The notes below the pieces were generated by a model. The model saw nothing but the letters and a program-made list of their open reading frames with translations. It ran no database searches and was not told the DNA's origin. This document shows, piece after piece, positions 2,802 to 10,453 of a stretch of 64,000 nucleotides of DNA. Source of the DNA: Thermoplasmata archaeon (GTDB taxonomy: Archaea; Thermoplasmatota; Thermoplasmata; Lutacidiplasmatales; UBA184). The stretch covers positions 6,909 through 70,908 of the forward strand of contig JAKIVS010000009.1 in assembly GCA_022750435.1 (NCBI GenBank), in the 5' to 3' direction. Both the position numbers and the translations under genes were made by a program. Positions within the stretch are counted from its first letter, which is position 1; every line of letters begins with the position of its first letter.

Positions 2802-3593
2802 ATGCCGCTCGAGTGGCGCAGCACCGACGCTTCGGCGCCCCCGTTCGCCCCCGGCGGGATCGTCGTGTCGAGCTTCCCTTCGGCCGGCCTCGCCGCGACC
2901 GTGGCGGGCCACTACATTGTCAAGACCCTCAAACTGCCGAGGATCGGCGTCTTCGATGGGACCGACTCGCAACCCATCGCGGTCGTCCAGAACGGTCAGG
3001 TGCACCCGCCGATCCGCGTCTACGGCCGACCGGATCTGGCGGTCGTGCTCTCCGAGCTCCCAGTTCCACCGGACCTGGCGTTCCCCTTGGCCCAGGCGAT
3101 CCTCACCGGGGCCGAGCAGCGGAAGGCGCGTCTCGTGATCGGCCTCGAGGGCGTGATGCCGCACCCGTCGGAGGCGCCGGGCGCACCAACCGACCCGCCG
3201 GCCCCCAACGACGAGACCGTGTGGGCCACCTGCGCTCGGGAGGAGGCGGGGCTTTCGGCGGAGCTGAAACGGGCCAACGCGCGGCGGCTCGAGGACGGGG
3301 TCATCGGCGGGCTCTCCGGAGGTCTCCTCATCGAGGGGATCACCCGTCCGACGCCGGTCGCGGTCCTCCTGGTCAGCGCCAGCACCGGTGCGGAGGGATT
3401 CCCGGACCACCGCGCCGGGGCGGCGCTCATCGAAACGCTCGACCGGATGCTTCCCGAACTGAAGATCGACACGGGTCCGCTGCGGACGCAGGCGGAAGTG
3501 ATCGAGAAGGCTCTGCGCGCCGCGATGAAGGCACGGGCACGTTCTGTCCCTGAGGCGCCCCCGGAGCAGGGCCAGCCGACGATCTACGGCTGA
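2802..3593 (+). CDS. PAC2-family proteasome assembly chaperone-like protein
   Basis: ORF 2727..3593. I place the start at ATG 2802 (alternatives TTG 2727, ATG 2766). GGIVVSSFPSAGLAATVAGHYIV and the ~260-aa size fit archaeal PAC2 (PbaA/PbaB-like) proteins. The family call is from pattern memory only. Confidence 0.6.
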   Translation: MPLEWRSTDASAPPFAPGGIVVSSFPSAGLAATVAGHYIVKTLKLPRIGVFDGTDSQPIAVVQNGQVHPPIRVYGRPDLAVVLSELPVPPDLAFPLAQAILTGAEQRKARLVIGLEGVMPHPSEAPGAPTDPPAPNDETVWATCAREEAGLSAELKRANARRLEDGVIGGLSGGLLIEGITRPTPVAVLLVSASTGAEGFPDHRAGAALIETLDRMLPELKIDTGPLRTQAEVIEKALRAAMKARARSVPEAPPEQGQPTIYG

Positions 3594-3612
3594 GCCGACC
3601 TCGAGAACTCAG

Positions 3613-3795
3613 CTACGAGGAGCTCGGGGTACCGAACGAGTCGGTGTAGGTCAGCAGGTACAGGGCGCCCCCGAGCATGACCATCACGAGGGCGAGTATG
3701 GCGAGCGGGTTGTCCGAGAACTGCCAGATCGTGACTCCGATGAGAATCGCGGGCACCACGAAGGTGAACAGCACGGTCAGGATGCGGCCGTCCAT
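3613..3795 (-). CDS. Small two-TM membrane protein, unknown function
   Basis: Within ORF 3613..3858. From ATG 3795 the sequence is MDGRILTVLFTFVVPAILIGVTIWQFSDNPLAILALVMVMLGGALYLLTYTDSF..., giving two clear hydrophobic helices. GC3 is high. An AT-rich box (3822-3830) lies ~30 nt upstream of this ATG, which favours the shorter start. Confidence 0.5.
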   Translation of the reverse strand: MDGRILTVLFTFVVPAILIGVTIWQFSDNPLAILALVMVMLGGALYLLTYTDSFGTPSSS

Positions 3796-3819
3796 GGACC
3801 GACGCTCCGAGCGCCCTCG

Positions 3820-3832
3820 GGAGATAAAGATT
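3820..3832. promoter_or_regulatory. AT-rich TATA-like island shared by divergent genes 3795(-) and 3873(+)
   Basis: GAGATAAAGATT is the only AT-rich patch in the gap. It lies ~30 nt from ATG 3795 on the minus strand. On the plus strand it is followed by GGAGGT (3862-3867) 5 nt before GTG 3873. Confidence 0.35.
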
Positions 3833-3872
3833 CCCAGCGTCCGGGCACCGGGATCCACTTCGGAGGTCGCCC

Positions 3873-4421
3873 GTGGCCACTGACGATTCTCGAGTCTTCG
3901 CCCGGTGGCGCCGAGAATCCGACCCCGCGCCCGGCTACTGGCCGATCCCGGCCGATGGTGGGTGCCTCTCGGTATTCCTTCTCGTCCAAGACCCGACGGA
4001 CCCCGGGCGGATCGCCTTGGGAACGCCGGATCCCTCGGCCCCCTGGTCCCGGATCGGCGCGCTGGACGAAGCGCGCCTTAGCCGGATCGGGGACCGGTTG
4101 ATGCTGCCCTCGTGCCATCTCGTCGAGTACGAGTCTCCGGATGCCGCCGCCCGCCGAGTGGAGGACGAACAGCTGGGACGGACCGACCTGGTGCTGAGCG
4201 GTCCGCAGGTCGTCTCCGATGCCTACGGCCGCCCGGACGCGACGGGGCAACACTGGGACCTCCACTTCCTGTACCGCACGACCTGGCCCCGCGGCGTCCC
4301 GCTGGCGGCCCCGGCCTGGAAACGTCTCACGTTCGAGGACCCTCGGTCGCTCCCCCGGGAGCGGTACGCCCGGGCGCACGACGACATCGTGCGGTTCGCG
4401 GGGTTCGAGACCCCTCGGTGA
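3873..4421 (+). CDS. Hypothetical protein, possibly a degenerate Nudix fold
   Basis: 182-aa ORF with a GTG start preceded by a GGAGGT Shine-Dalgarno-like site. The segment CHLVEYESPDAAARRVEDEQLG loosely resembles a Nudix box (E-x7/8-R-x-V-x-[DE]-E-x-G) but is imperfect, so the function is uncertain. Confidence 0.5.
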   Translation: MATDDSRVFARWRRESDPAPGYWPIPADGGCLSVFLLVQDPTDPGRIALGTPDPSAPWSRIGALDEARLSRIGDRLMLPSCHLVEYESPDAAARRVEDEQLGRTDLVLSGPQVVSDAYGRPDATGQHWDLHFLYRTTWPRGVPLAAPAWKRLTFEDPRSLPRERYARAHDDIVRFAGFETPR

Positions 4422-4451
4422 GCGCCGGCGGCTTCGCGAACGTCGGCGAGT

Positions 4452-5375
4452 TCAGAGCGCTTCCGGGCCACGGGGGCCCGAAGCGATGACCTCGAAGGTG
4501 AGCTCGACGTCGGCCGGAGGCGAGGGAGCCCCGCCCGCCATGCGCGGGTAGAGCGGGGGCATCTCCTCCGGCGGCTCGGGCCCGAGCGAGCTCGGAACCG
4601 TCGGCGGGACCCTCGGGAAACTCTCCTCGAGCGCGATCTGCGGGATCCGCTGGGAATCGAGCAGCGTCTCGACCGGGGTGAGCATCGACTCCTCGATGTG
4701 GTCCGCGATCCGGCTCGCCCAGACGACGGGCACATGTCGGACCGGCATCCGCCGGTCCTGCCGCAGAAGTTCCTCGTTGTCGAGGACCGTGAGCGTCGCC
4801 TGGCGGCGCTGGTGCTTCTCGACGAAGGCGTCGAGGAAGTGGAGGCCCGCGATCGCGCGTTCCGCGACGGCGCGGCGTTCCGCCTCGACGGCGAACGGCT
4901 TGACGACGAAGACGCTCAGCACCTCGGCCGAGCGGCTGGCGGCCTCCAGGACGACCGGGAGGATCCCGGTCCCGCTGGCACCGCCCAGAGAAGCGACGAC
5001 CGTGACGAAGGTGGCCCCGTCGAACACGCGCTCGAGCGCGGGCTCGGCGGCGCGGGCGATCTGGCCGGCAGCGCCCGCGGTGGCGGGGACGCCGAAGGCC
5101 GGGCCGTTGTCGGAGCCGAGGCAGATCCGCCGGTCGAACTCCTCCGAGTCGGCGACCCTCGGGTCGCAGTTGATGGCGACGGTCTCGACGAAGCGGAGAT
5201 GGCGGCGCGCGATCTCCCGGCCGATCCGGATGCCTCCACCGCCGACGGCGGCGAGCAGGAACCGGACGTCGTGTCCCAGCCGTACGGTGGGCTCCCAGAG
5301 CCCCACGTCGACCTCACTCGTCCGCGTGTTCGTTCCGTCCCGGTCGTTCTCCCGTCGTCCGTTGGCCTCGCGCAT
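4452..5375 (-). CDS. FtsZ/tubulin-superfamily GTPase-like protein, N-terminal GTP-binding domain only (307 aa)
   Basis: This is the inner part of ORF 4452..5828, starting at ATG 5375 (MREANGRRE...); the upstream part of that ORF is an Arg/Gly/Pro shadow frame. Motifs appear in FtsZ order: AVGGGGIRIG (G-box), AINCD, SLGGASGTG (tubulin signature GGGTG[ST]G), KPFAVEAERR (FtsZ PFxFEGxxR), LDNEELL. No T7 loop or FtsZ C-terminal domain is recognisable, and the tail is Pro-rich. Confidence 0.7.
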   Translation of the reverse strand: MREANGRRENDRDGTNTRTSEVDVGLWEPTVRLGHDVRFLLAAVGGGGIRIGREIARRHLRFVETVAINCDPRVADSEEFDRRICLGSDNGPAFGVPATAGAAGQIARAAEPALERVFDGATFVTVVASLGGASGTGILPVVLEAASRSAEVLSVFVVKPFAVEAERRAVAERAIAGLHFLDAFVEKHQRRQATLTVLDNEELLRQDRRMPVRHVPVVWASRIADHIEESMLTPVETLLDSQRIPQIALEESFPRVPPTVPSSLGPEPPEEMPPLYPRMAGGAPSPPADVELTFEVIASGPRGPEAL

Positions 5376-5416
5376 CGCCACCACCCCCGCCGTGAATCGT
5401 CCGAATCCCCCCTGGG

Positions 5417-5920
5417 CTACCGGCCCAGGACCCCCTTTCGCTCGAGCTCCTCCGACGTGTCGCGGAGCTCGCGCAGCCTCTCCCGGCTGGCGTTCGCGCT
5501 CCGGACGGCCGAGCGGGACCGCTCGACGAGCTCGCCGACCTTCGCCTCGAGCTCGCCGCGACGGACCAGCTCTGCGAGGACGTCCGCGAGATCGCGGCCG
5601 TTCCCGTTCAGCTCGCCGTAGGCGCGCAGCGTCTCCACCTCGTCCGACCGGAGCCGGACCGGCACCTCGACCAGGTCCCGGACCGAACGGGTGGGTACGC
5701 TTTCGACGGCCGTGAGGGCCCGCGCCCGCAGGAACTCGCGCAGCGCCTCGCGCACCAGAGCCGACCGGTTGCGGAACTCCCCGCTGGCGACAAACGAGTC
5801 GACCAGCTGGAGCTCCTTGCGGTGGCACCGGAGCGCAATGCGCTCGTCCTCGGGACCGATCCGTGCTACGGCCGGAGCGTGCGGCTCCTCCGAAACACGG
5901 CGCGGGGGTTTGTCGAACAC
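5417..5920 (-). CDS. Ribbon-helix-helix (CopG/ParG-like) DNA-binding protein with helical E/R/L-rich C-terminal half
   Basis: 167 aa with a GTG start. RIALRCHRKELQLVDSFVASGEFRNRSALVREALREFL fits the beta-alpha-alpha RHH pattern. The C-terminal ~90 aa (LAELVRRGELEAKVGELVERSRSAVRSANASRERLRELRDTSEELERK) looks coiled-coil-like. The gene ends 41 nt upstream of the FtsZ-like gene. Confidence 0.7.
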   Translation of the reverse strand: MFDKPPRRVSEEPHAPAVARIGPEDERIALRCHRKELQLVDSFVASGEFRNRSALVREALREFLRARALTAVESVPTRSVRDLVEVPVRLRSDEVETLRAYGELNGNGRDLADVLAELVRRGELEAKVGELVERSRSAVRSANASRERLRELRDTSEELERKGVLGR

Positions 5921-5935
5921 GGCTGACGCGAGCTA

Positions 5936-5960
5936 TGCAAAATCATTCTACTTAAATTAT
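5936..5960. promoter_or_regulatory. AT-rich island upstream of the RHH gene (candidate bidirectional promoter)
   Basis: GCAAAATCATTCTACTTAAATTAT is by far the most AT-rich stretch nearby. Its left half is ~25 nt from GTG 5920 on the minus strand. The TTAAATTAT box is ~26 nt from an ATG at 5982 on the plus strand. Confidence 0.4.
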
Positions 5961-6395
5961 CGGCCATCCCCGCGACGAAAAATGACCGGTAGGACGGTGT
6001 CGACACCGGCCGACGTTGTCGAACAATTCCGGGCCGACGCGAAGGGGGCTCCGAACTCGAAAACCGTGCGTATAACCGGCTCGAAATTCACCGGAAATTG
6101 GCTCATGGCCGTTCGGAGGGGATTCCCGACCTGGTTGCCGTCGGCGGTGTCGTCGCGCGGCGCGGTCCCGACCCAGTTCTCGAGCTGCGCGGGGGCGGAC
6201 CCTTCGGCGCGAGGGTGGCGGATTTCCCCACCGTGGACACCCATGCCATCGTCGAGGGAGCGGGGGTGGAAATGCTGAGAGTTTCGAGGGGCCGTAGGTC
6301 CCCCCCGCGGGGAGGCGAAGGGTCCTCCCCAGCCCCGCCGGCCGCTCGACGTCCGAGACCGGCAGGTTCTTGGCTTCCGGTTCGCTCGGTGCACC

Positions 6396-6821
6396 GTGGC
6401 GTTCCGTCGGCCTCGGAGGCTTTACCTCCTCATCGCCGCGATCACCCTCGTCGCAGTCACGGGACTCGTTCTCCTCGTCCTTTTCCTCCCCGTGCAGCAG
6501 GAGTCCTCGGGGTACACGATGGTCGGCCCTCGGCTCTACTCGTACGAGAGCGAGGAGCTGTTCGGGGCGAACAACGGGTGGGAGAACTACTCCTACCGCG
6601 GCGTGACGTTCGGATTTCACCTCTGGTGTGAGACCACGCCAGCCGCCGGGACCCTGTGCGGAAACGCGACGGGATCGGACGGAGTCGCCCACTCGTACTC
6701 GTTCTCCGACGGCCCGCCGCAGATCGGGCCCCCGTCCTGGGAAATGTGGGTGTCGCCGAACGGCCACGAAGCCGTCGAATACCAGCAGGGTGGACTGGTC
6801 CATCTTCTCGTCGTCGCGTGA
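6396..6821 (+). CDS. N-terminally membrane-anchored exported protein, unknown function
   Basis: 141 aa with a GTG start. MAFRRPRRLYLLIAAITLVAVTGLVLLVLFL is a charged n-region followed by a TM/signal anchor. GC3 is high, and the protein has two Cys and an NAT sequon. An 8-bp GC hairpin follows the stop. Confidence 0.6.
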   Translation: MAFRRPRRLYLLIAAITLVAVTGLVLLVLFLPVQQESSGYTMVGPRLYSYESEELFGANNGWENYSYRGVTFGFHLWCETTPAAGTLCGNATGSDGVAHSYSFSDGPPQIGPPSWEMWVSPNGHEAVEYQQGGLVHLLVVA

Positions 6822-6827
6822 CGCGGC

Positions 6828-6846
6828 GGCGCCCCGCGGGGGCGCC
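6828..6846 (+). terminator. Perfect 8-bp GC hairpin just after the stop of 6396..6821
   Basis: GGCGCCCC-GCG-GGGGCGCC. There is no U-tract, so a terminator function is only a guess. Confidence 0.25.
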
Positions 6847-6960
6847 TCCCCCCGCCGGGCGAGCCCACGGTGGAGCCCGGGGCCCGGTTCCCGCGTTCCG
6901 GGACAATCCGCACGGATGCGCCCTCCGGCTCTCTGTGGGTCGCTCCGACGAGCCGCGTCG

Positions 6961-6974
6961 ATAATATTCAAATA
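6961..6974 (+). promoter_or_regulatory. TATA-like box upstream of the pilin-like gene
   Basis: ATAATATTCAAATA stands out in an otherwise GC-rich gap. The only in-frame start codon downstream of it is GTG 7020. Confidence 0.45.
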
Positions 6975-7019
6975 CGTGACCTCGCCAGTAATAGCCGGGG
7001 CGCCCTCCCCGCGAGGTCC

Positions 7020-9260
7020 GTGACCGCAGTTGTTTCGCTTGGCCGCCGCACCCGAACGTCCCGCTGGCGCCGCGCCTCCGCGCGCCGCAACCACCGCGGG
7101 GTCAGCGACGTCGTCGCGACGATCCTGCTCCTCGCCCTGACGGTGACGCTGTTCGCGTCCGTGTTCTTCTTCATCAACACGTTCCCGCGGCCCCCGCCGC
7201 AGCCGGCAAACCAGTTCTCGGCGACGCTGACCTACGGCCAGCTGAGCGGCGGGAAGATCCCGATCCTCGACGTCAACGTCCTCCACCTCGCCGGCCCCAC
7301 CATCGCGGGCCCGACGACCTCGCAGGTTGCGGTCTATCTCCAGTCCCAGGCGAAGCCGTCCGCCTTCGCGGCACCGTTTACGCTCGGATTCGGGCTCAAC
7401 GGTTCGTCGACCTGGTCGCTCGGCCAAACCTGGACGGGGAACATCACGAGCTACCTCCTCAAGGTCCCCGACAACGTCACGATCTCGATCATCTCGCAGT
7501 CGCAGCTCCTGTTCCGGATCACCCTCCCTGGTTCCAGCCCGAACACCCCCCCGATCTTCACCCAGGCCGGGGTCAACCCTGCCTCCCCGTCGGTCAGCGG
7601 GCCGTTCACGACGTACGTCGCGATCTCCGACCCGAACCTGAATACCGGCTCGGTGTTCGTCAACGTCTCGCAGGTCCCCGGCGTGACCGGTTCGGGTCTG
7701 GACCAGATGTCGTTCCTCCCGACGTCGGGCTTGTGGGTGTTTACCCTCGCCGGCGGCTCGAATTCCGCCGGTACGTTCTACGTCTTCGTCAACGCGACCG
7801 ATGGATCGGGCCTCCAGAACTCAATCGCCATCCCGGTGACGATCACCAACACCGGTGGGAGCGCCTCGGTCCTCCAGATCCAGGTCACCGCCGACAACAC
7901 GGCCCCCGTCAAGGGGACGGCCATCCAGCTCGAGGCGAGCGTCACCAACAACGGCGGGACGGCCAGCACGGTGCTCGTCCAGTTCTACGCGGGCGGCAAC
8001 ACCGTCGGCTCGGTCCAATCCCAGGGCCTCACCGCCGGCGGGACCGCGGTCTACACCCAATCCTGGACCCCCGCGACCGTCGGGGCGACGCCCATCCAGG
8101 CGCTCGCAACGACGACCGGAGCCTCGGCCGAGGGCGGGTTCTCGATCACCGTCTTCCCGAAGATCCTGTTCATCGCCCACGCCTACCCCGCCGGTTCCTT
8201 CCCGGTGTCGAACACCTCGGCGGACCTCGCCCAGAAGCTGACCGCCGACGGGTTCCCCTTCACCGAGATGGCCGTCGCCTGCGGCACGGCCCTGCCGTCC
8301 ACGGCGACGATGTCGGCCTACGCGGTGGTCATCATCGACTTCGGCAGCGCGACGGGACTCACCTGCAGCCAGGTCCCGCCGGGCGCGAGCGAGCAGACCA
8401 AGATCACCGGCGCCGCGACGACCACCAACTTCTGGCTGGTCGGCTCGAACGCGTTCACGGCCACCGCCTGCACGAGCTACTCCGCCGCGTTCCAGACCCA
8501 GTTCGGCCTCATGACGAGCGGCACCTGCACCACGTCGCACACGACGAGCTCCACGGCGACGTACACGGCCTCCGGGACGGCCCCCGACCTCCGCGCGGAC
8601 GGCCTTCCGGGCACGCTCGCCCTGACCGTGAACCAGACGTTCGCCGGTTCCGCGGCGTTCCAGCCGTACTTCGCGCTGACGGCCCAGGCGTCGGGCAAGA
8701 CGTGGCTGAAGGACTCGGGCAGCCACATCATCGGCCTCTACACCAACACGACGACGGACCACCAGCAGCTCGCCCTCGCGACCGACCCGGCCCTGATCAC
8801 CTCGCCGATCCCGGGTGGCCTCGTCGACGGCACCGCATCCGGCGCCTCCGCCGCGGTCGTCTACAACGCGGTCAACTTCCTGTGCGGTCTCTCGACCACC
8901 TCGAACCCCGGTCGCGGGCTCCCGGACTATGGGATCGCGGGCAGTACCCAGTTCCCCCTGAAGCATGGGCTCCCGTCCGAGTTCTTCGTCGCCGTGCGGG
9001 CGAATGGGCCGATCGGCGGCGCCGTCTTCGCGACGCTCTACGTCGGGGGCGCTCCGGCGTACTTCGGCGGCGCGCTCGTGACGGGCCAGGTCACCCTGAC
9101 GAGCAACGGCGCGTGGTCGTGGATCGTCCTCAACTGGACGGCCCCCGCCGCGGGCACCTACGCGCTGAGCCTCGGGCTGACGAGCGAGAACACGGACATG
9201 TACCTCGCCAACAACCTGCTGCCGCTCTCGTACTACAACAACCCCACGACGTTCACGTAA
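7020..9260 (+). CDS. Large archaeal type IV pilin-like (class III signal peptide, DUF1628-type N-domain) surface protein with CARDB-like domains
   Basis: Lies in ORF 6870..9260; I place the start at GTG 7020, downstream of the TATA-like box. RRNHRGVSDVVATILLLALTVTLFASVFFFI matches the archaeal prepilin/archaellin signal (basic n-region, R-G|V-S, hydrophobic helix). VTADNTAPVKGTAIQLEASVTNNGGTASTVLVQFYAGGNTVGSVQSQGLTAGGTAVYTQSWTP is CARDB-like, with a second such segment near the C-terminus. The protein is T/S/G/A-rich with many N-x-S/T sequons. Confidence 0.8.
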   Translation: MTAVVSLGRRTRTSRWRRASARRNHRGVSDVVATILLLALTVTLFASVFFFINTFPRPPPQPANQFSATLTYGQLSGGKIPILDVNVLHLAGPTIAGPTTSQVAVYLQSQAKPSAFAAPFTLGFGLNGSSTWSLGQTWTGNITSYLLKVPDNVTISIISQSQLLFRITLPGSSPNTPPIFTQAGVNPASPSVSGPFTTYVAISDPNLNTGSVFVNVSQVPGVTGSGLDQMSFLPTSGLWVFTLAGGSNSAGTFYVFVNATDGSGLQNSIAIPVTITNTGGSASVLQIQVTADNTAPVKGTAIQLEASVTNNGGTASTVLVQFYAGGNTVGSVQSQGLTAGGTAVYTQSWTPATVGATPIQALATTTGASAEGGFSITVFPKILFIAHAYPAGSFPVSNTSADLAQKLTADGFPFTEMAVACGTALPSTATMSAYAVVIIDFGSATGLTCSQVPPGASEQTKITGAATTTNFWLVGSNAFTATACTSYSAAFQTQFGLMTSGTCTTSHTTSSTATYTASGTAPDLRADGLPGTLALTVNQTFAGSAAFQPYFALTAQASGKTWLKDSGSHIIGLYTNTTTDHQQLALATDPALITSPIPGGLVDGTASGASAAVVYNAVNFLCGLSTTSNPGRGLPDYGIAGSTQFPLKHGLPSEFFVAVRANGPIGGAVFATLYVGGAPAYFGGALVTGQVTLTSNGAWSWIVLNWTAPAAGTYALSLGLTSENTDMYLANNLLPLSYYNNPTTFT

Positions 9261-9302: not shown

Positions 9303-10397
9303 TCAGACGGAGTCGCTGGAGAGCGGTTTGCTGGCTGCGGTCGGGAGCTTGGCCCCGCACTTCCAGCAGTTCGTCTCGTTGGGATAGACGACGGCCCCGC
9401 AGCTCGGACAGGCCGCCTCGGTCTTGGTCCCGGTGCCGCTCGGGGAGGGGGTTCCCCCCGGAGGAAGTCCGAGCGGGGTGAGCGGTGGGGGATTTCCCGA
9501 GGTCGGGGGGATCGTGCCCGAGCCGGCGCCGGCCCGCGCCGCCTTCTTCCGGGCCTCGCGGTTCTTCAGGAAGACGTAGACCAGCAGGCCCACGTAGAAC
9601 ACGATCCCGGGGTAGAACAGCACGTCCAGGATGGTTTGGGGCAGCAAGAGGTCGTAGGTTGAGAGCCACGTCCCAGTCACCGGGCCCTGGACGGCCCCGT
9701 ACGCGTTCGAGACGGACAGGAAGATCCACTGGTAGGTCGTGTTGGTCGAGTTCGTGGACGCGTTGAAGGTGACCGTCCTCGCGAGGAGGCCCATCTGCCA
9801 CCACCAGATGTTCGGCCCAGGCAGCGCGAGGTGGAAGTCGAGGTGCGCCGGGGACTCGGTGGTGTTGATGACGGACTGGTTGACGGGGTAGAACGGGTAT
9901 CCGTTGCCGCAGAAGGGGGAGGAGTTCCCGGTGGCGCCGGGACAGGTGCTGACGAACAGCTCGAGCGAGTAGGGGGTGGTATTGGCCGGAAGCCGCGCTG
10001 GGTACATGTCGACCGAGAAGTCGAACATCGTGCCCCCGGCGGCGTTGTAGGGGGACACGGTGGCGTTCGTCAGGACCGGTTGGCCGTTCGAGGTGTTGAG
10101 CGCGTCCGTCGCGGACGAGGCGAGGCCGCTCGGGATCATCGCTTGCGAGGTCAGCCCCCAATTGATTAGCGGTCCGGCGGCGAGGATCACGACGATTCCG
10201 AGGACCGCCAGCTGGCGCGGGGACTTCCAGCCGAGATAGATCGGGACCCCGAGCCCGAAGAGCAGGAACGTGGGGATGGCGAAGTACGGACCGAGGTAGT
10301 AGAACGAGAGCGCGAGGGTCAGAAGCGCCAATCCGCCGAGGGCAATCTTCCCGTACCGCGTGGCCACGAACGCCCGCAGTCCCGTCCCGCGCTGCAC
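9303..10397 (-). CDS. Polytopic membrane glycoprotein-like protein with C-terminal cytoplasmic zinc ribbon
   Basis: The ORF extends to TTG 10448, but I place the start at GTG 10397, which is ~29 nt downstream of the TATA box at 10422-10431. The protein has several N-terminal TM helices, a sequon-rich loop (NTS, NAT, NTT, NSS, NQS, NAS, NST...) and a last TM (VLFYPGIVFYVGLLVYVFL). The tail then ends in CPSCGAVVYPNETNCWKCG (CxxC-x10-CxxC). Confidence 0.75.
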   Translation of the reverse strand: MQRGTGLRAFVATRYGKIALGGLALLTLALSFYYLGPYFAIPTFLLFGLGVPIYLGWKSPRQLAVLGIVVILAAGPLINWGLTSQAMIPSGLASSATDALNTSNGQPVLTNATVSPYNAAGGTMFDFSVDMYPARLPANTTPYSLELFVSTCPGATGNSSPFCGNGYPFYPVNQSVINTTESPAHLDFHLALPGPNIWWWQMGLLARTVTFNASTNSTNTTYQWIFLSVSNAYGAVQGPVTGTWLSTYDLLLPQTILDVLFYPGIVFYVGLLVYVFLKNREARKKAARAGAGSGTIPPTSGNPPPLTPLGLPPGGTPSPSGTGTKTEAACPSCGAVVYPNETNCWKCGAKLPTAASKPLSSDSV

Positions 10398-10421
10398 GAT
10401 TCGGCGGTCGAGCGGGGCGCT

Positions 10422-10431
10422 CCATATAAGG
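10422..10431. promoter_or_regulatory. Single near-palindromic TATA box shared by divergent genes (10397 minus, apgM 10454 plus)
   Basis: CCATATAAGG has its centre ~28-29 nt from GTG 10397 on one strand and ~28 nt from ATG 10454 on the other. Confidence 0.5.
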
Positions 10432-10453
10432 AAACCCCGGGTCGCCAACGTCG

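Follow-up and report, generated by a model that had tools for sequence, protein, structure and literature searches.

Two adjacent genes on the minus strand of the window (the whole 64,000-nucleotide stretch of DNA that was analysed) are best read as a new version of the known cdrS-ftsZ type of cassette, one in which the FtsZ is shortened at its C-terminus. The upstream gene encodes an RHH protein, and the downstream gene encodes an FtsZ-family protein, here called half-FtsZ. We give a probability of about one half to the reading that the archaeal cdrS-ftsZ cell-division cassette has here a lineage-specific paralogue, in which half-FtsZ would cap or modulate the filaments of canonical FtsZ. The cdrS-ftsZ2 operon and the role of CdrS as a division regulator have been published (Darnell et al., 2020, PMC7439475; Liao et al., 2021, PMC8406309); no description of an operon of an RHH gene and a half-FtsZ gene was found in the literature searchable here.

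Organization of the locus

5417-5920, minus strand: gene of the RHH protein (GTG start, 167 aa)
4452-5375, minus strand: gene of half-FtsZ (ATG start, 307 aa)
5376..5416, minus strand: intergenic spacer of 41 nt, with Shine-Dalgarno-like GGGGGTGGTG 4 nt before the half-FtsZ ATG
3613..3795, minus strand: 2-TM miniprotein, 60 aa from MDGR, with motifs F[SA]xNPL and GGxYL[LV][TS]Y

Both reading frames, the 41-nt gap between them, the order of the FtsZ motifs and the Pro-rich tail are as the sequence-only reading had claimed, on the minus strand, and the neighbouring genes are indeed housekeeping genes (FEN1, PAC2, FTCD and phosphoglycerate mutase). The 41-nt spacer holds a Shine-Dalgarno-like element and no TATA-like box, which implies that the two genes would be co-transcribed as one operon; a GGGGTGG-type element precedes the start of the half-FtsZ gene in about 20 related loci. 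Searches with the PADLOC defence-system models returned no match for the RHH protein, half-FtsZ, the miniprotein or the ORF inserted between the last two.

Upstream of the RHH gene, conserved elements stand out:

5949..5956, minus strand: TATA box of the operon, TTTAAGTA, at least 80% conserved in a 41-locus alignment
6012..6026, minus strand: TTGTTCGACAACGTC, conserved and non-coding, ahead of the RHH start by about 95 nt
6070..6076, minus strand: second conserved upstream element, GTTATAC

The 3' end of the TATA box lies 28 nt before the RHH GTG, so that the leader of the operon is very short, and a GCATAG at 5933-5938 is likewise conserved. Across about 40 species, TTGTTCGACAACGTC is conserved to at least 80% amid a flanking spacer that varies; a one-base indel between clades excludes a coding role, and the window holds a single exact copy. 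We regard it as a candidate operator, or as an element shared with a divergent promoter. GTTATAC, read on the plus strand as GTATAAC, may be a TATA box of a divergent transcript.

Of 82 loci examined by tblastn, 78 have the miniprotein gene right after half-ftsZ in the same orientation, and it is called as a gene of 55-56 aa in L001, L083 and L086. It has its own promoter-like, TATA-like box, and in the window an inserted ORF on the opposite strand parts it from the operon; both observations speak against a firm link to the cassette.

Half-FtsZ carries the GTP-binding half of FtsZ

4743..5279, minus strand: GTP-binding subdomain, aa 33-211 (pLDDT 91-97 except around aa 86-100)
4626..4742, minus strand: H7-like core helix, aa 212-250, where the folded part of the AlphaFold model stops
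4488..4511, minus strand: C-terminal linear motif DVELTFEV, aa 289-296, past the variable Pro-rich linker

From its N-terminus, half-FtsZ consists of a variable peptide, the GTP-binding subdomain, the H7 helix, a disordered Pro-rich linker and a conserved C-terminal peptide; the motifs AVGGGGIRIG, NCD, SLGGASGTG, KPFAVEAERR and LDNEELL follow one another in this order ahead of the Pro-rich tail. Its proposed membership of the tubulin/FtsZ superfamily was borne out by Pfam, in which PF00091 (Tubulin/FtsZ GTPase) matched aa 43-204 with 53.7 bits and passed the gathering cut-off of 33 bits. The TIGR00065 ftsZ model gave 62.1 bits over model positions 24-184 of 353 only; its equivalog cut-off is 295.2 bits, and canonical Thermoplasmata FtsZ scores 333 bits. 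A PDB sequence search with half-FtsZ retrieved FtsZ chains at about 1e-13, in alignments confined to the N-terminal half. AlphaFold predicted the protein with pLDDT >90 over roughly aa 33-245 and with disorder past aa 250, and the best 50 Foldseek matches were all FtsZ (probability 1.00, about 200 aligned columns), among them PDB 1W5F, which we take to come from Oliva, Cordell and Lowe 2004. An assignment to CetZ was rejected, since all significant PDB sequence and fold matches were FtsZ; CetZ structures exist in the PDB, and no chain so named appeared at E <=1.

The loops of the GTP subdomain are recognizable as T1 (GGGG), T2 (NCD), T4 (SLGGASGTG), T5 (KPFAVEAERR) and T6 (LDNEELL). Invariant columns of the family include G45 and G46, N69 and C70, and G131, G132, G135 and G137, and further P160, F161, E164, R167, R168, D199 and N200; the T4 signature reads SLGGASGTG in the window protein and SLGGGxGTG in the family consensus. 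Half-FtsZ shares with canonical FtsZ (TIGR00065; FtsZ1/FtsZ2) the fold of the GTP subdomain, loops T1, T2, T4, T5 and T6, helix H7, and a disordered linker followed by a conserved terminal peptide, but it differs in a remodelled T3 loop and in the terminal peptide itself (ELTFEV versus GID). In the family alignment the gamma-phosphate sensor, loop T3, is both divergent and variable, so nucleotide binding or sensing by half-FtsZ may be altered.

The claim that the protein consists of the GTPase domain without a T7 loop or C-terminal domain also held. The T7 motif NxD[FLYM]xD, present in most canonical FtsZ matches at about position 207-227, is absent from the window half-FtsZ and from every family representative; FtsZ_C (PF12327), carried by the canonical relatives, has no match on half-FtsZ, and just 57 disordered residues follow H7 in the AlphaFold model. 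Past the half-FtsZ stop codon there is no trace of sequence coding for a C-terminal subdomain, and the next gene lies on the opposite strand.

The family consensus of the terminal peptide is [DE]xELTFEV, with E291, T293 and E295 invariant and L292 at least 90% conserved in the family alignment; the linker before DVELTFEV varies in both length and sequence, the DVELTFEV region is disordered in the AlphaFold model, and the divergent members L083 and L086 retain the peptide as ELxFE/ELLLE. Archaeal FtsZ binds SepF through a C-terminal 'GID' peptide (PMC8178401), which the half-FtsZ terminal peptide does not resemble, an observation that counts against the reading favoured here. At the other end of the protein, the N-terminal motif LRLGHDVRF is invariant across the family.

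The RHH protein and the origin of the cassette

5717..5845, minus strand: first RHH repeat, aa 26-68, CdrS-like; predicted DNA-binding ribbon and two helices
aa 84-125 of the RHH protein: possible degenerate second beta-alpha-alpha repeat, by correspondence with related proteins

The RHH protein contains RIALRCHRKELQLVDSFVASGEFRNRSALVREALREFL, and had been described as an RHH DNA-binding protein with an apparently coiled-coil tail of about 90 aa. The first part of this description has weaker backing than the FtsZ assignment: the best NCBIfam match is CdrS, a weak similarity (NF058555, 30.1 bits against a cut-off of 100), and the Pfam matches to RHH_8 (21.6 bits) and RHH_1 (18.4 bits) both stay just under cut-off; the Pfam and NCBIfam alignments span aa 23-78 and 26-68. 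The second part has to be revised: where the tail was proposed AlphaFold predicts one long helix (aa 111-161), and part of the tail (aa 84-125) corresponds to the second repeat of related proteins, a repeat that is undetectable in the protein's own family. Members of this family keep to about 167 aa, and their mean column identity is 69%, with invariant first-repeat columns R27 I28 A29 R31 ... G47 E48 F49 R52 S53 and a conserved ERKGVxGR at the C-terminus.

Canonical FtsZ of Thermoplasmata (PF00091 plus PF12327) likewise has an RHH protein encoded upstream, a tandem RHH of 104-115 aa; the single one scanned, the 104-aa protein of locus L096, matches the CdrS model in two stretches with 61 bits. 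The CdrS-type regulator adjoining Thermoplasmata ftsZ is a tandem (single-chain) RHH. Profile comparison by hhalign aligned the RHH family of half-FtsZ loci with the tandem RHH of canonical ftsZ loci (89.6% probability, E 1.9e-6) in repeat 1 only, and the C-terminal helix and ERKGVxGR of the 167-aa RHH are missing from the 104-aa RHH of the canonical cassettes. Because a homologous RHH gene stands upstream of canonical Thermoplasmata ftsZ, we read the pair as a duplicated cdrS-ftsZ cassette, and half-FtsZ is best read as a paralogue that lost the T7 loop and the C-terminal subdomain.

The resemblance to the cdrS-ftsZ2 operon of Euryarchaeota lies in an RHH gene immediately upstream of an ftsZ-family gene on the same strand. 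The differences are considerable: the downstream protein in the window lacks T7, FtsZ_C and a GID-type peptide, the RHH protein has 167 aa with a long extra helix where CdrS has about 60 aa, its CdrS score falls far under the family cut-off, and a gene for a 2-TM miniprotein is attached.

Distribution and conservation

Relatives of half-FtsZ, 302-321 aa long and with identities down to 46%, occur in at least 132 species genomes, and the carriers are all Thermoplasmata MAGs, Lutacidiplasmatales-like; lengths this constant in so many species show that the gene is not a frameshifted ftsZ. A word-index search with half-FtsZ gave 267 matches of consistent length (about 300-315 aa), and PF00091 is precomputed on 120/120 of the homologues listed. 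In a profile search of the family that covered 1.84 billion representatives, 21 clusters scored at least 150 bits, all of them <=321 aa, and the next-best matches (<=107 bits) were confined to the GTPase core. The alignment holds 40 invariant columns, concentrated within the GTP loops and terminal peptide; the nucleotide-binding subdomain and the H7 helix are under strong purifying selection.

The adjacency to the RHH gene is conserved in relatives: the RHH gene lies directly upstream on the same strand, at a gap of 30-50 nt, in 81 of the 81 testable half-ftsZ loci, and also in another context, that of L083, which retains the trio of RHH protein, half-FtsZ and miniprotein in unrelated surroundings. 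Wider synteny around half-ftsZ is also kept in most genomes, so that the case for linkage rests mainly on the few loci with other contexts.

A possible cap for FtsZ filaments

An FtsZ/tubulin subunit has a GTP-holding face and a T7 face, which sets off hydrolysis in the adjoining subunit; in 2004 Oliva, Cordell and Lowe reportedly found that the GTPase site of each subunit is completed by the T7 loop of its neighbour. Half-FtsZ would bind GTP through its intact 'top' face, and lacking the 'bottom' (T7) face it should neither form head-to-tail homopolymers nor activate GTP hydrolysis in a neighbour. Our best guess is a half-FtsZ that may cap or be non-hydrolysing: it could bind beneath a canonical FtsZ subunit whose T7 face is exposed, where it would block further addition, and so act as a sub-stoichiometric cap or as a regulator of the length and turnover of the division ring. 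The C-terminal peptide would then tether the capped end to a partner, for which the 2-TM miniprotein is the obvious candidate. The RHH protein would be a CdrS-type transcription factor acting on the operon's own promoter region and probably on other division genes, with its added C-terminal helix serving in oligomerisation or partner contact. The capping target is assumed, because canonical FtsZ is unassigned in the half-FtsZ-bearing genomes.

Half-FtsZ resembles in this respect the engineered FtsZ N-terminal domains and bottom-face cappers, having the 'top' face intact and the T7 'bottom' face missing. Bottom-face-deficient FtsZ constructs are said to have been described as cappers by Oliva et al. 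in 2004 and Du et al. in 2018; in vitro, such constructs bind GTP but show no hydrolysis by themselves, and sub-stoichiometric amounts of them poison growing filaments. Those cappers were made in the laboratory, whereas half-FtsZ evolved naturally, is conserved, and has a regulator and a tail of its own. The fully specified version of this scheme, a dedicated capper of division-ring filament ends that is anchored through ELTFEV and the miniprotein and dosed by the CdrS-like regulator, we put forward only tentatively and think unlikely in all its parts; that Lutacidiplasmatales lack canonical FtsZ and divide by a T7-less FtsZ is much less likely still.

A conserved natural protein that keeps the GTP face alone is an evolutionary 'experiment' that splits the roles of the two faces. 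The known parts list of archaeal division is very short (FtsZ1, FtsZ2, SepF, CdrS, PRC-barrel proteins and CdpA), and half-FtsZ would extend it by a new type of regulator if its role is to cap or tune canonical filaments. Such a specialised cap would also be a first among endogenous tubulin-superfamily paralogues, spread over several orders of Thermoplasmata, and a ready biochemical tool for probing the polarity of FtsZ filaments. That a cdrS-ftsZ cassette can be duplicated whole and then diverge bears on the origins of cytoskeletal modules, and since Lutacidiplasmatales/TMEG are abundant uncultured soil archaea, any handle on their cell biology is useful.

Alternative readings

The strict coupling of the two genes could also mean that half-FtsZ, as a monomer or dimer, is a nucleotide switch working apart from FtsZ filaments and binding the RHH protein, through the extra RHH helix or through ELTFEV, so that transcription of division or growth genes tracks GTP. 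The C-terminal helix and ERKGVxGR gained by the RHH protein, the loss of half of the polymer interface, the remodelling of the loop that senses the gamma-phosphate and the conserved candidate operator upstream would all fit such a pair. The proposed contact between the RHH protein and half-FtsZ is conjecture, however, and an FtsZ-family transcriptional co-factor has no known precedent; a disordered linker with a terminal peptide is the classic membrane-anchor tether of FtsZ, and the conserved 2-TM neighbour suits tethering better. On balance we think this reading unlikely.

Still less probable, in our estimate, is a self-sufficient filament or membrane-remodelling system in which half-FtsZ polymerises by a new interface, as proposed for FtsZl1, and is anchored by the 2-TM miniprotein, so as to replace or supplement FtsZ in wall-less archaea. 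The trio is kept even in a foreign context, the LRLGHDVRF motif is invariant, no canonical FtsZ was found that could be assigned to the half-FtsZ-bearing genomes, and Makarova and Koonin suggest a novel assembly for FtsZ-like proteins without the T6-H7/C-terminal elements (PMC2875224). Yet the absent T7/C-terminal face makes up half of every known longitudinal contact in the tubulin family, the unassigned canonical FtsZ is not the outcome of a genome survey, and related Thermoplasmata clearly have canonical FtsZ with an RHH partner.

In TubZ/TubR and ParR/ParG systems, too, an NTPase of the tubulin or actin family is paired with a small DNA-binding protein, and the sequence-only reading had drawn the analogy with TubZ/TubR partition. 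The RHH protein would then bind a centromere-like site and recruit the tubulin-family NTPase by which DNA is moved or positioned, much as the RHH2 adaptors ParR and ParG couple centromeres to cytomotive filaments, and the strict two-gene pairing and the conserved upstream DNA element agree with this. The analogy nevertheless fails on several counts, and we hold it to be highly improbable. TubZ has both subdomains and T7, and TubR is a winged HTH; filaments of TubZ need the T7 loop and C-terminal subdomain that half-FtsZ lacks. TubZ/TubR/tubC requires repeat arrays and is plasmid- or phage-borne, and neither feature is seen at the window locus: no repeat array occurs within 3400-6900, a stretch whose direct repeats all fall inside the RHH coding sequence; the conserved element has one copy; and the surrounding chromosomal genes are housekeeping ones, with synteny kept throughout an order. 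The RHH protein is nearest to CdrS, a transcription factor, and among the PDB matches listed for half-FtsZ there was no TubZ chain and PhuZ (PHIKZ039) appeared at E 0.018 only, against about 1e-13 for FtsZ.

A decaying remnant, that is, a pseudogenised or non-functional truncated ftsZ left from a duplication, would account for the removal of a whole subdomain by a truncating mutation and for the low FtsZ-model score of 62 bits, but is already refuted by the conservation data described above (constant length across species of identity down to 46%, and 40 invariant columns in the GTP loops and terminal peptide), to which the confidently predicted fold and the clean end of the coding sequence can be added.

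Other divergent and short FtsZs

The sequence-only reading had also considered the poorly characterised short FtsZ-like families predicted from comparative genomics. Like half-FtsZ, FtsZl1 is a divergent FtsZ-superfamily protein without canonical filament-contact elements (PMC2875224), but the families in question proved to be long and multi-domain: FtsZl1 has about 1000 aa, with a coiled coil, an alpha-helical C-terminal domain and Tubulin_2 (PF13809), and shares its operons with genes for vWA, GTPase and OmpA proteins (PMC2875224, PMC9871819), and the proteobacterial FtsZl2 has a 300-aa alpha/beta C-terminal region (PMC2875224). An assignment of half-FtsZ to FtsZl1 or FtsZl2 was rejected on its 307 aa, its match to PF00091 and not PF13809, and its lack of vWA, GTPase or OmpA neighbours.

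Shortening of a different extent is met in bacteria. Agrobacterium FtsZ1 reportedly lacks mainly the linker and the C-terminal peptide. In the part of the source available to us, FtsZ1 and FtsZ3 of this member of the Hyphomicrobiales (10.1101/2025.09.29.679267) are termed duplicated FtsZ GTPases and are, like half-FtsZ, conserved shortened FtsZ paralogues beside division machinery; they are proposed to tune division, and an excess of FtsZ1 blocks it. They are bacterial and of independent origin, and that part of the source mentions neither an RHH partner nor a miniprotein; half-FtsZ differs from them in being cut inside the globular core, just past H7.

Analogous pairs occur in Methanomassiliicoccales and other lineages: in three further genomic contexts, short FtsZs of 273, 291 and 296 aa are preceded on the same strand by small genes of 120, 129 and 139 aa. 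The 120- and 129-aa partners have Pfam RHH_1 matches; the 139-aa partner has none, yet aligns with the tandem RHH. A single origin of all short FtsZs received 25% bootstrap in a neighbour-joining tree, and the partner RHHs of these short FtsZs match the 104-aa RHH of L096 with E 6e-14, 2e-8 and 6e-8.

The two genes and the fold of the half-FtsZ

The half-FtsZ, an FtsZ-like protein, and its ribbon-helix-helix (RHH) partner are encoded on the same strand with a gap of exactly 41 nt between them, in a window whose G+C content is ~70% throughout:

5417-5920, - strand: RHH protein gene, GTG start, 167 aa
4452-5375, - strand: half-FtsZ gene, ATG start, 307 aa

As the sequence-only reading had proposed, the 307-aa protein belongs to the tubulin/FtsZ superfamily, scoring 53.7 bits on PF00091 (cut-off 33) over aa 43-204, and the motifs AVGGGGIRIG, NCD, SLGGASGTG, KPFAVEAERR and LDNEELL do occur in that order ahead of a Pro-rich tail. 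On the FtsZ equivalog TIGR00065 it reaches 62 bits (cut-off 295), covering model positions 24-184 of 353, and its sequence matches to solved FtsZ structures, at ~1e-13, are confined to the N-terminal half. The identical sequence is found in NCBI as hypothetical protein L3K00_05870 of a Thermoplasmata MAG. The 167-aa partner scores slightly under the Pfam cut-offs for RHH_8 and RHH_1. Among NCBIfam models it scores highest on CdrS, a regulator of archaeal cell division, with 30 bits where the cut-off is 100.

An AlphaFold2 model of the half-FtsZ, built from 36 homologues, has pLDDT >90 across approximately aa 33-245 and consists of a six-stranded nucleotide-binding subdomain, a single long helix (aa 212-250) and a disordered remainder (aa 251-307); as modelled, the long helix is the counterpart of FtsZ H7. 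The top Foldseek matches in the PDB are all FtsZ, with ~200 aligned columns and a TM-score of ~0.52, values that correspond to half an FtsZ. The T7 motif NxD[FLYM]xD, found near residue 210 in most canonical FtsZ matches, is absent from the half-FtsZ and from every representative of its family. Since the predicted fold ends after H7 and the T7 motif is lacking, the model describes an FtsZ cut immediately after H7, which keeps the GTP-bearing 'top' face and has lost the 'bottom' face made of T7 and the C-terminal subdomain.

These sequence and fold matches to the PDB, headed by FtsZ, rule out identity with CetZ or TubZ. Membership of the predicted short FtsZ-like families, which had also been suggested, does not hold, as FtsZl1 and FtsZl2 are long proteins with a Tubulin_2 domain and belong to different operons. 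A defence system was likewise discarded, there being no PADLOC match.

Conservation of the half-FtsZ family

A word-index search returned 267 relatives of the half-FtsZ; among the 120 listed, nearly all are Thermoplasmata MAG proteins of 300-315 aa. When 1.84 billion cluster representatives were searched with a profile, 21 clusters scored 150 bits or more, all of them at most 321 aa; beyond these, scores dropped sharply to 107 bits or less with the GTPase core alone matched. Scanning one genome per species placed relatives in 132 genomes, and the matches listed (80 of the 132) are all from Thermoplasmata-type MAGs of soil and peat, Candidatus Lutacidiplasma silvani included. The host group is the order Lutacidiplasmatales/TMEG, with ~69% G+C (PMC9287336). 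No second FtsZ paralogue was detected within the 64-kb window by tblastn.

In the family alignment the nucleotide-loop columns G45, G46, N69, C70, G131, G132, G135, G137, P160, F161, E164, R167, R168, D199 and N200 are invariant, the T3 region is variable, and the linker is constrained in neither length nor sequence. The protein ends in a nearly invariant peptide, [DE]xELTFEV, in which E291, T293 and E295 are invariant and L292 is conserved in at least 90%. The half-FtsZ resembles FtsZ in having a disordered linker and a conserved terminal peptide, the design that FtsZ uses for reaching membrane anchors, but its peptide differs from the 'GID' SepF-binding motif of archaeal FtsZ (PMC8178401). 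Altogether it departs from canonical FtsZ in four defining features: the equivalog score, the T7 loop, the FtsZ_C domain and the GID peptide.

The gene pair and its upstream region

The adjacency of the RHH and FtsZ-like genes, on which the sequence-only reading had staked its proposal, is well preserved among relatives: in 81 of 82 loci a same-strand RHH gene immediately precedes the ftsZ-like gene, 30-50 nt away, and in the sole exception the contig begins at the ftsZ-like gene. The intergenic gap holds a GGGGTGG-type ribosome-binding element and is devoid of a TATA-like box, while 41 aligned loci have two elements in common ahead of the RHH start, the TATA box TTTAAGTA (window 5949-5956) and the hexamer GCATAG, which points to a single, short-leader transcript for both genes. 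Two further elements lie upstream:

6012-6026, - strand: 15-nt conserved element TTGTTCGACAACGTC, ~95 nt upstream of the RHH start
6070-6076, - strand: conserved element GTTATAC, ~155 nt ahead of the RHH start

Both are at least 80% conserved across ~40 species, and the surrounding spacer varies freely. The first, TTGTTCGAC(A)ACGTC, contains a one-base indel between clades; this indel breaks the frame of a supposed small conserved + strand ORF across the element and so excludes a coding explanation. The 475-nt spacer upstream of the RHH gene gave no tRNA or Rfam match. The two elements may be an operator or pieces of a divergent promoter. As a regulon motif within the window, the TTGTTCGAC element was rejected, with a single exact copy and all remaining matches carrying 2-3 mismatches.

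Short FtsZs in other lineages and the origin of the pair

Short FtsZs outside the window's family show the same cut after H7 and a disordered acidic or Pro-rich tail, with neither T7 loop nor FtsZ_C. They include a 273-aa protein of Methanomassiliicoccales MAGs, which scores 229 bits on TIGR00065 (model positions 16-229) and whose GTPase core, judged by this match, remains very FtsZ-like, and, from other lineages, proteins of 291, 296/303, 281 and 257 aa. A small same-strand gene, encoding 120, 129 or 139 aa, directly precedes the short ftsZ in all three usable contigs, each with a different neighbourhood; the 120-aa and 129-aa products match Pfam RHH_1, and the 139-aa product has no such match, although it can be aligned to the tandem RHH introduced below. 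The pairs, in Methanomassiliicoccales and two other lineages with unrelated neighbourhoods, indicate that the half-FtsZ theme is broader than the window's order:

L089, 4506-5822, same strand: 273-aa short FtsZ and RHH-like gene
L095, 888-2201, same strand: 291-aa short FtsZ and RHH-like gene
L093, 3539-4891, same strand: 296-aa short FtsZ and RHH-like gene

Canonical Thermoplasmata ftsZ genes (345-384 aa, PF00091 and PF12327) likewise have an RHH gene in front of them, encoding 104-115 aa:

L096, 1198-1512: RHH gene ahead of canonical ftsZ
L097, 4607-4921: RHH gene ahead of canonical ftsZ
L099, 3680-3997: RHH gene ahead of canonical ftsZ
L189, 1333-1680: RHH gene ahead of canonical ftsZ

The 104-aa protein of L096, the only one of these scanned, is a tandem, single-chain double RHH. 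The CdrS model matches it in two stretches (61 bits), and the RHH domain of a nickel-responsive (NikR-type) regulator is a further match of its second half. We did not find a tandem RHH beside canonical ftsZ stated in the CdrS papers, which describe a small RHH protein. By BLASTP, the partners of the short FtsZs match the L096 protein (E = 6e-14, 2e-8 and 6e-8), and profile-profile comparison (hhalign) of the window's RHH family with the tandem RHH family gave 89.6% probability (E = 1.9e-6), with repeat 1 only aligned. On these alignments the RHH protein of the window and the CdrS-like proteins encoded beside canonical ftsZ are homologous. The second repeat of the 120-aa and 129-aa partners matches the NikR-type RHH domain, and that of the latter also ParD. 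Within the window's RHH protein, hhalign of the two halves gave no internal duplication (0.8% probability) and Pfam no match on the C-terminal 89 aa; a second repeat there is suggested solely transitively, through relatives. Searching by fold with a model of the RHH monomer found nothing significant, the ParD RHH coming first at E = 2.7.

The cdrS-ftsZ2 operon is established in haloarchaea, where CdrS is a transcription factor controlling division, with synteny across Euryarchaeota (PMC7439475). Short FtsZs with an RHH gene, canonical ftsZ with an RHH gene and the alignments of the partners together changed our reading towards a duplicated cassette. The simplest reading, which we consider likely, is that a cdrS-ftsZ-type cassette was duplicated in Thermoplasmata and that the C-terminal subdomain disappeared from the FtsZ of the copy; the RHH of the duplicated cassette would further have gained its long C-terminal helix in the Lutacidiplasmatales lineage. 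The window locus probably works like a cdrS-ftsZ cassette and derives from one. In a neighbour-joining tree (100 bootstraps) the window's family is recovered at 100% on a long branch beside archaeal FtsZs, and a single origin of all short FtsZs receives 25%.

Separately, the half-FtsZ profile matched two proteins, of 826 aa (P0261, Candidatus Altiarchaeum) and 840 aa (P0263, Closterium), in two separate stretches each; both are apparently tandem double FtsZs, and two T7 motifs occur in P0263.

Possible function

We propose that the RHH protein would be a transcription factor targeting its own promoter region and, probably, other genes of division, with TTGTTCGACAACGTC (6012-6026) and GTTATAC (6070-6076) as candidate binding sites. 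The half-FtsZ is expected to bind GTP; with no T7 loop to offer, it is incapable of canonical head-to-tail assembly with copies of itself. A canonical FtsZ could dock its T7 face onto the half-FtsZ, which would then sit at one end of the filament and stop further subunits from joining there; the tail peptide of the half-FtsZ would tether the resulting complex, the adjacent two-TM miniprotein being the obvious candidate partner. Laboratory FtsZ N-terminal domains and 'bottom-face' mutants, the subject of Oliva et al. in 2004 and Du et al. in 2018, reportedly behave as end blockers. Capping of canonical FtsZ filaments is a tentative suggestion that assumes a canonical FtsZ in the same genomes; homology searching with a high-GC Thermoplasmata FtsZ query, accession comparison, a metagenome scan and locus contexts, which do not amount to a genome survey, yielded none linkable to a half-FtsZ genome. 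To the evolutionary reading and the mechanism taken together we assign a probability of roughly 50%.

Among the rivals, the half-FtsZ might instead be a GTP-sensing co-regulator of the RHH protein, or form a non-canonical polymer autonomously. A TubZ/TubR-like segregation module, the analogy drawn earlier from the pairing of a tubulin-family protein with a DNA-binding one, is disfavoured by the lack of a centromere-like repeat array near the locus, the housekeeping gene context, the missing T7 loop and the CdrS-like RHH. A pseudogene or frameshifted canonical ftsZ is refuted by the conserved length, motifs and species spread.

Hyphomicrobiales FtsZ1 keeps the whole globular core. For the proposed division-linked role of the half-FtsZ, the nearest functional analogy is with the truncated FtsZ paralogues of Hyphomicrobiales, which are bacterial and of independent origin and which are proposed to tune division (bioRxiv 10.1101/2025.09.29.679267). 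In the open-access literature we found no description of archaeal FtsZs reduced to the N-terminal subdomain or of their RHH partners, and FtsZ is unmentioned in the Lutacidiplasmatales paper and its supplements (PMC9287336). The locus is real and conserved, and offers a clear, testable hypothesis.

The miniprotein and the wider neighbourhood

A two-TM miniprotein of 55-60 aa, with the motifs F[SA]xNPL and GGxYL[LV][TS]Y, is encoded after half-ftsZ, in the same orientation, at 78 of 82 loci. Its gene usually has its own TATA-like box ~30 nt before the ATG (TTAAGAG, TTAAGTG or TTATGAG in relatives); it is a conserved neighbour that would lie outside the RHH/half-ftsZ transcript. In the window the intervening features are:

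3796-3872, - strand: spacer with the TATA-like box of the miniprotein gene, CTTTATCT
3873-4421, + strand: 182-aa ORF between half-ftsZ and the miniprotein gene, no Pfam or PADLOC match

The 182-aa ORF is unrelated to the module and, because it is limited to the window and its six closest relatives, is a recent insertion.

Most genomes with the module also share the wider synteny (FEN1, PAC2, FTCD, phosphoglycerate mutase and Trm5), which makes adjacency alone weak evidence of linkage. By gene content, the decisive case for linkage of the trio is locus L083 (63.6% G+C), home of the most divergent half-FtsZ (P0253), where a 160-aa RHH homologue, a 314-aa half-FtsZ and a 56-aa miniprotein are all present among neighbours unrelated to those of the window: NDK, Sua5 and peptidase M24 on one side and RNA polymerase subunits on the other. 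At L093, a 66-aa two-TM ORF (4897-5097, - strand) immediately follows the short ftsZ on the opposite strand and is possibly equivalent to the miniprotein.

Upstream of the RHH gene, two further genes are syntenic in most genomes:

6870-9260, + strand: 796-aa protein whose N-terminus is that of an archaeal type IV pilin, plus a CARDB domain
9303-10448, - strand: 381-aa membrane protein with a weak zinc-ribbon/DZR match at its end

Haloarchaeal CdrL also has a DZR domain, and the likeness of the 381-aa protein to it is weak.
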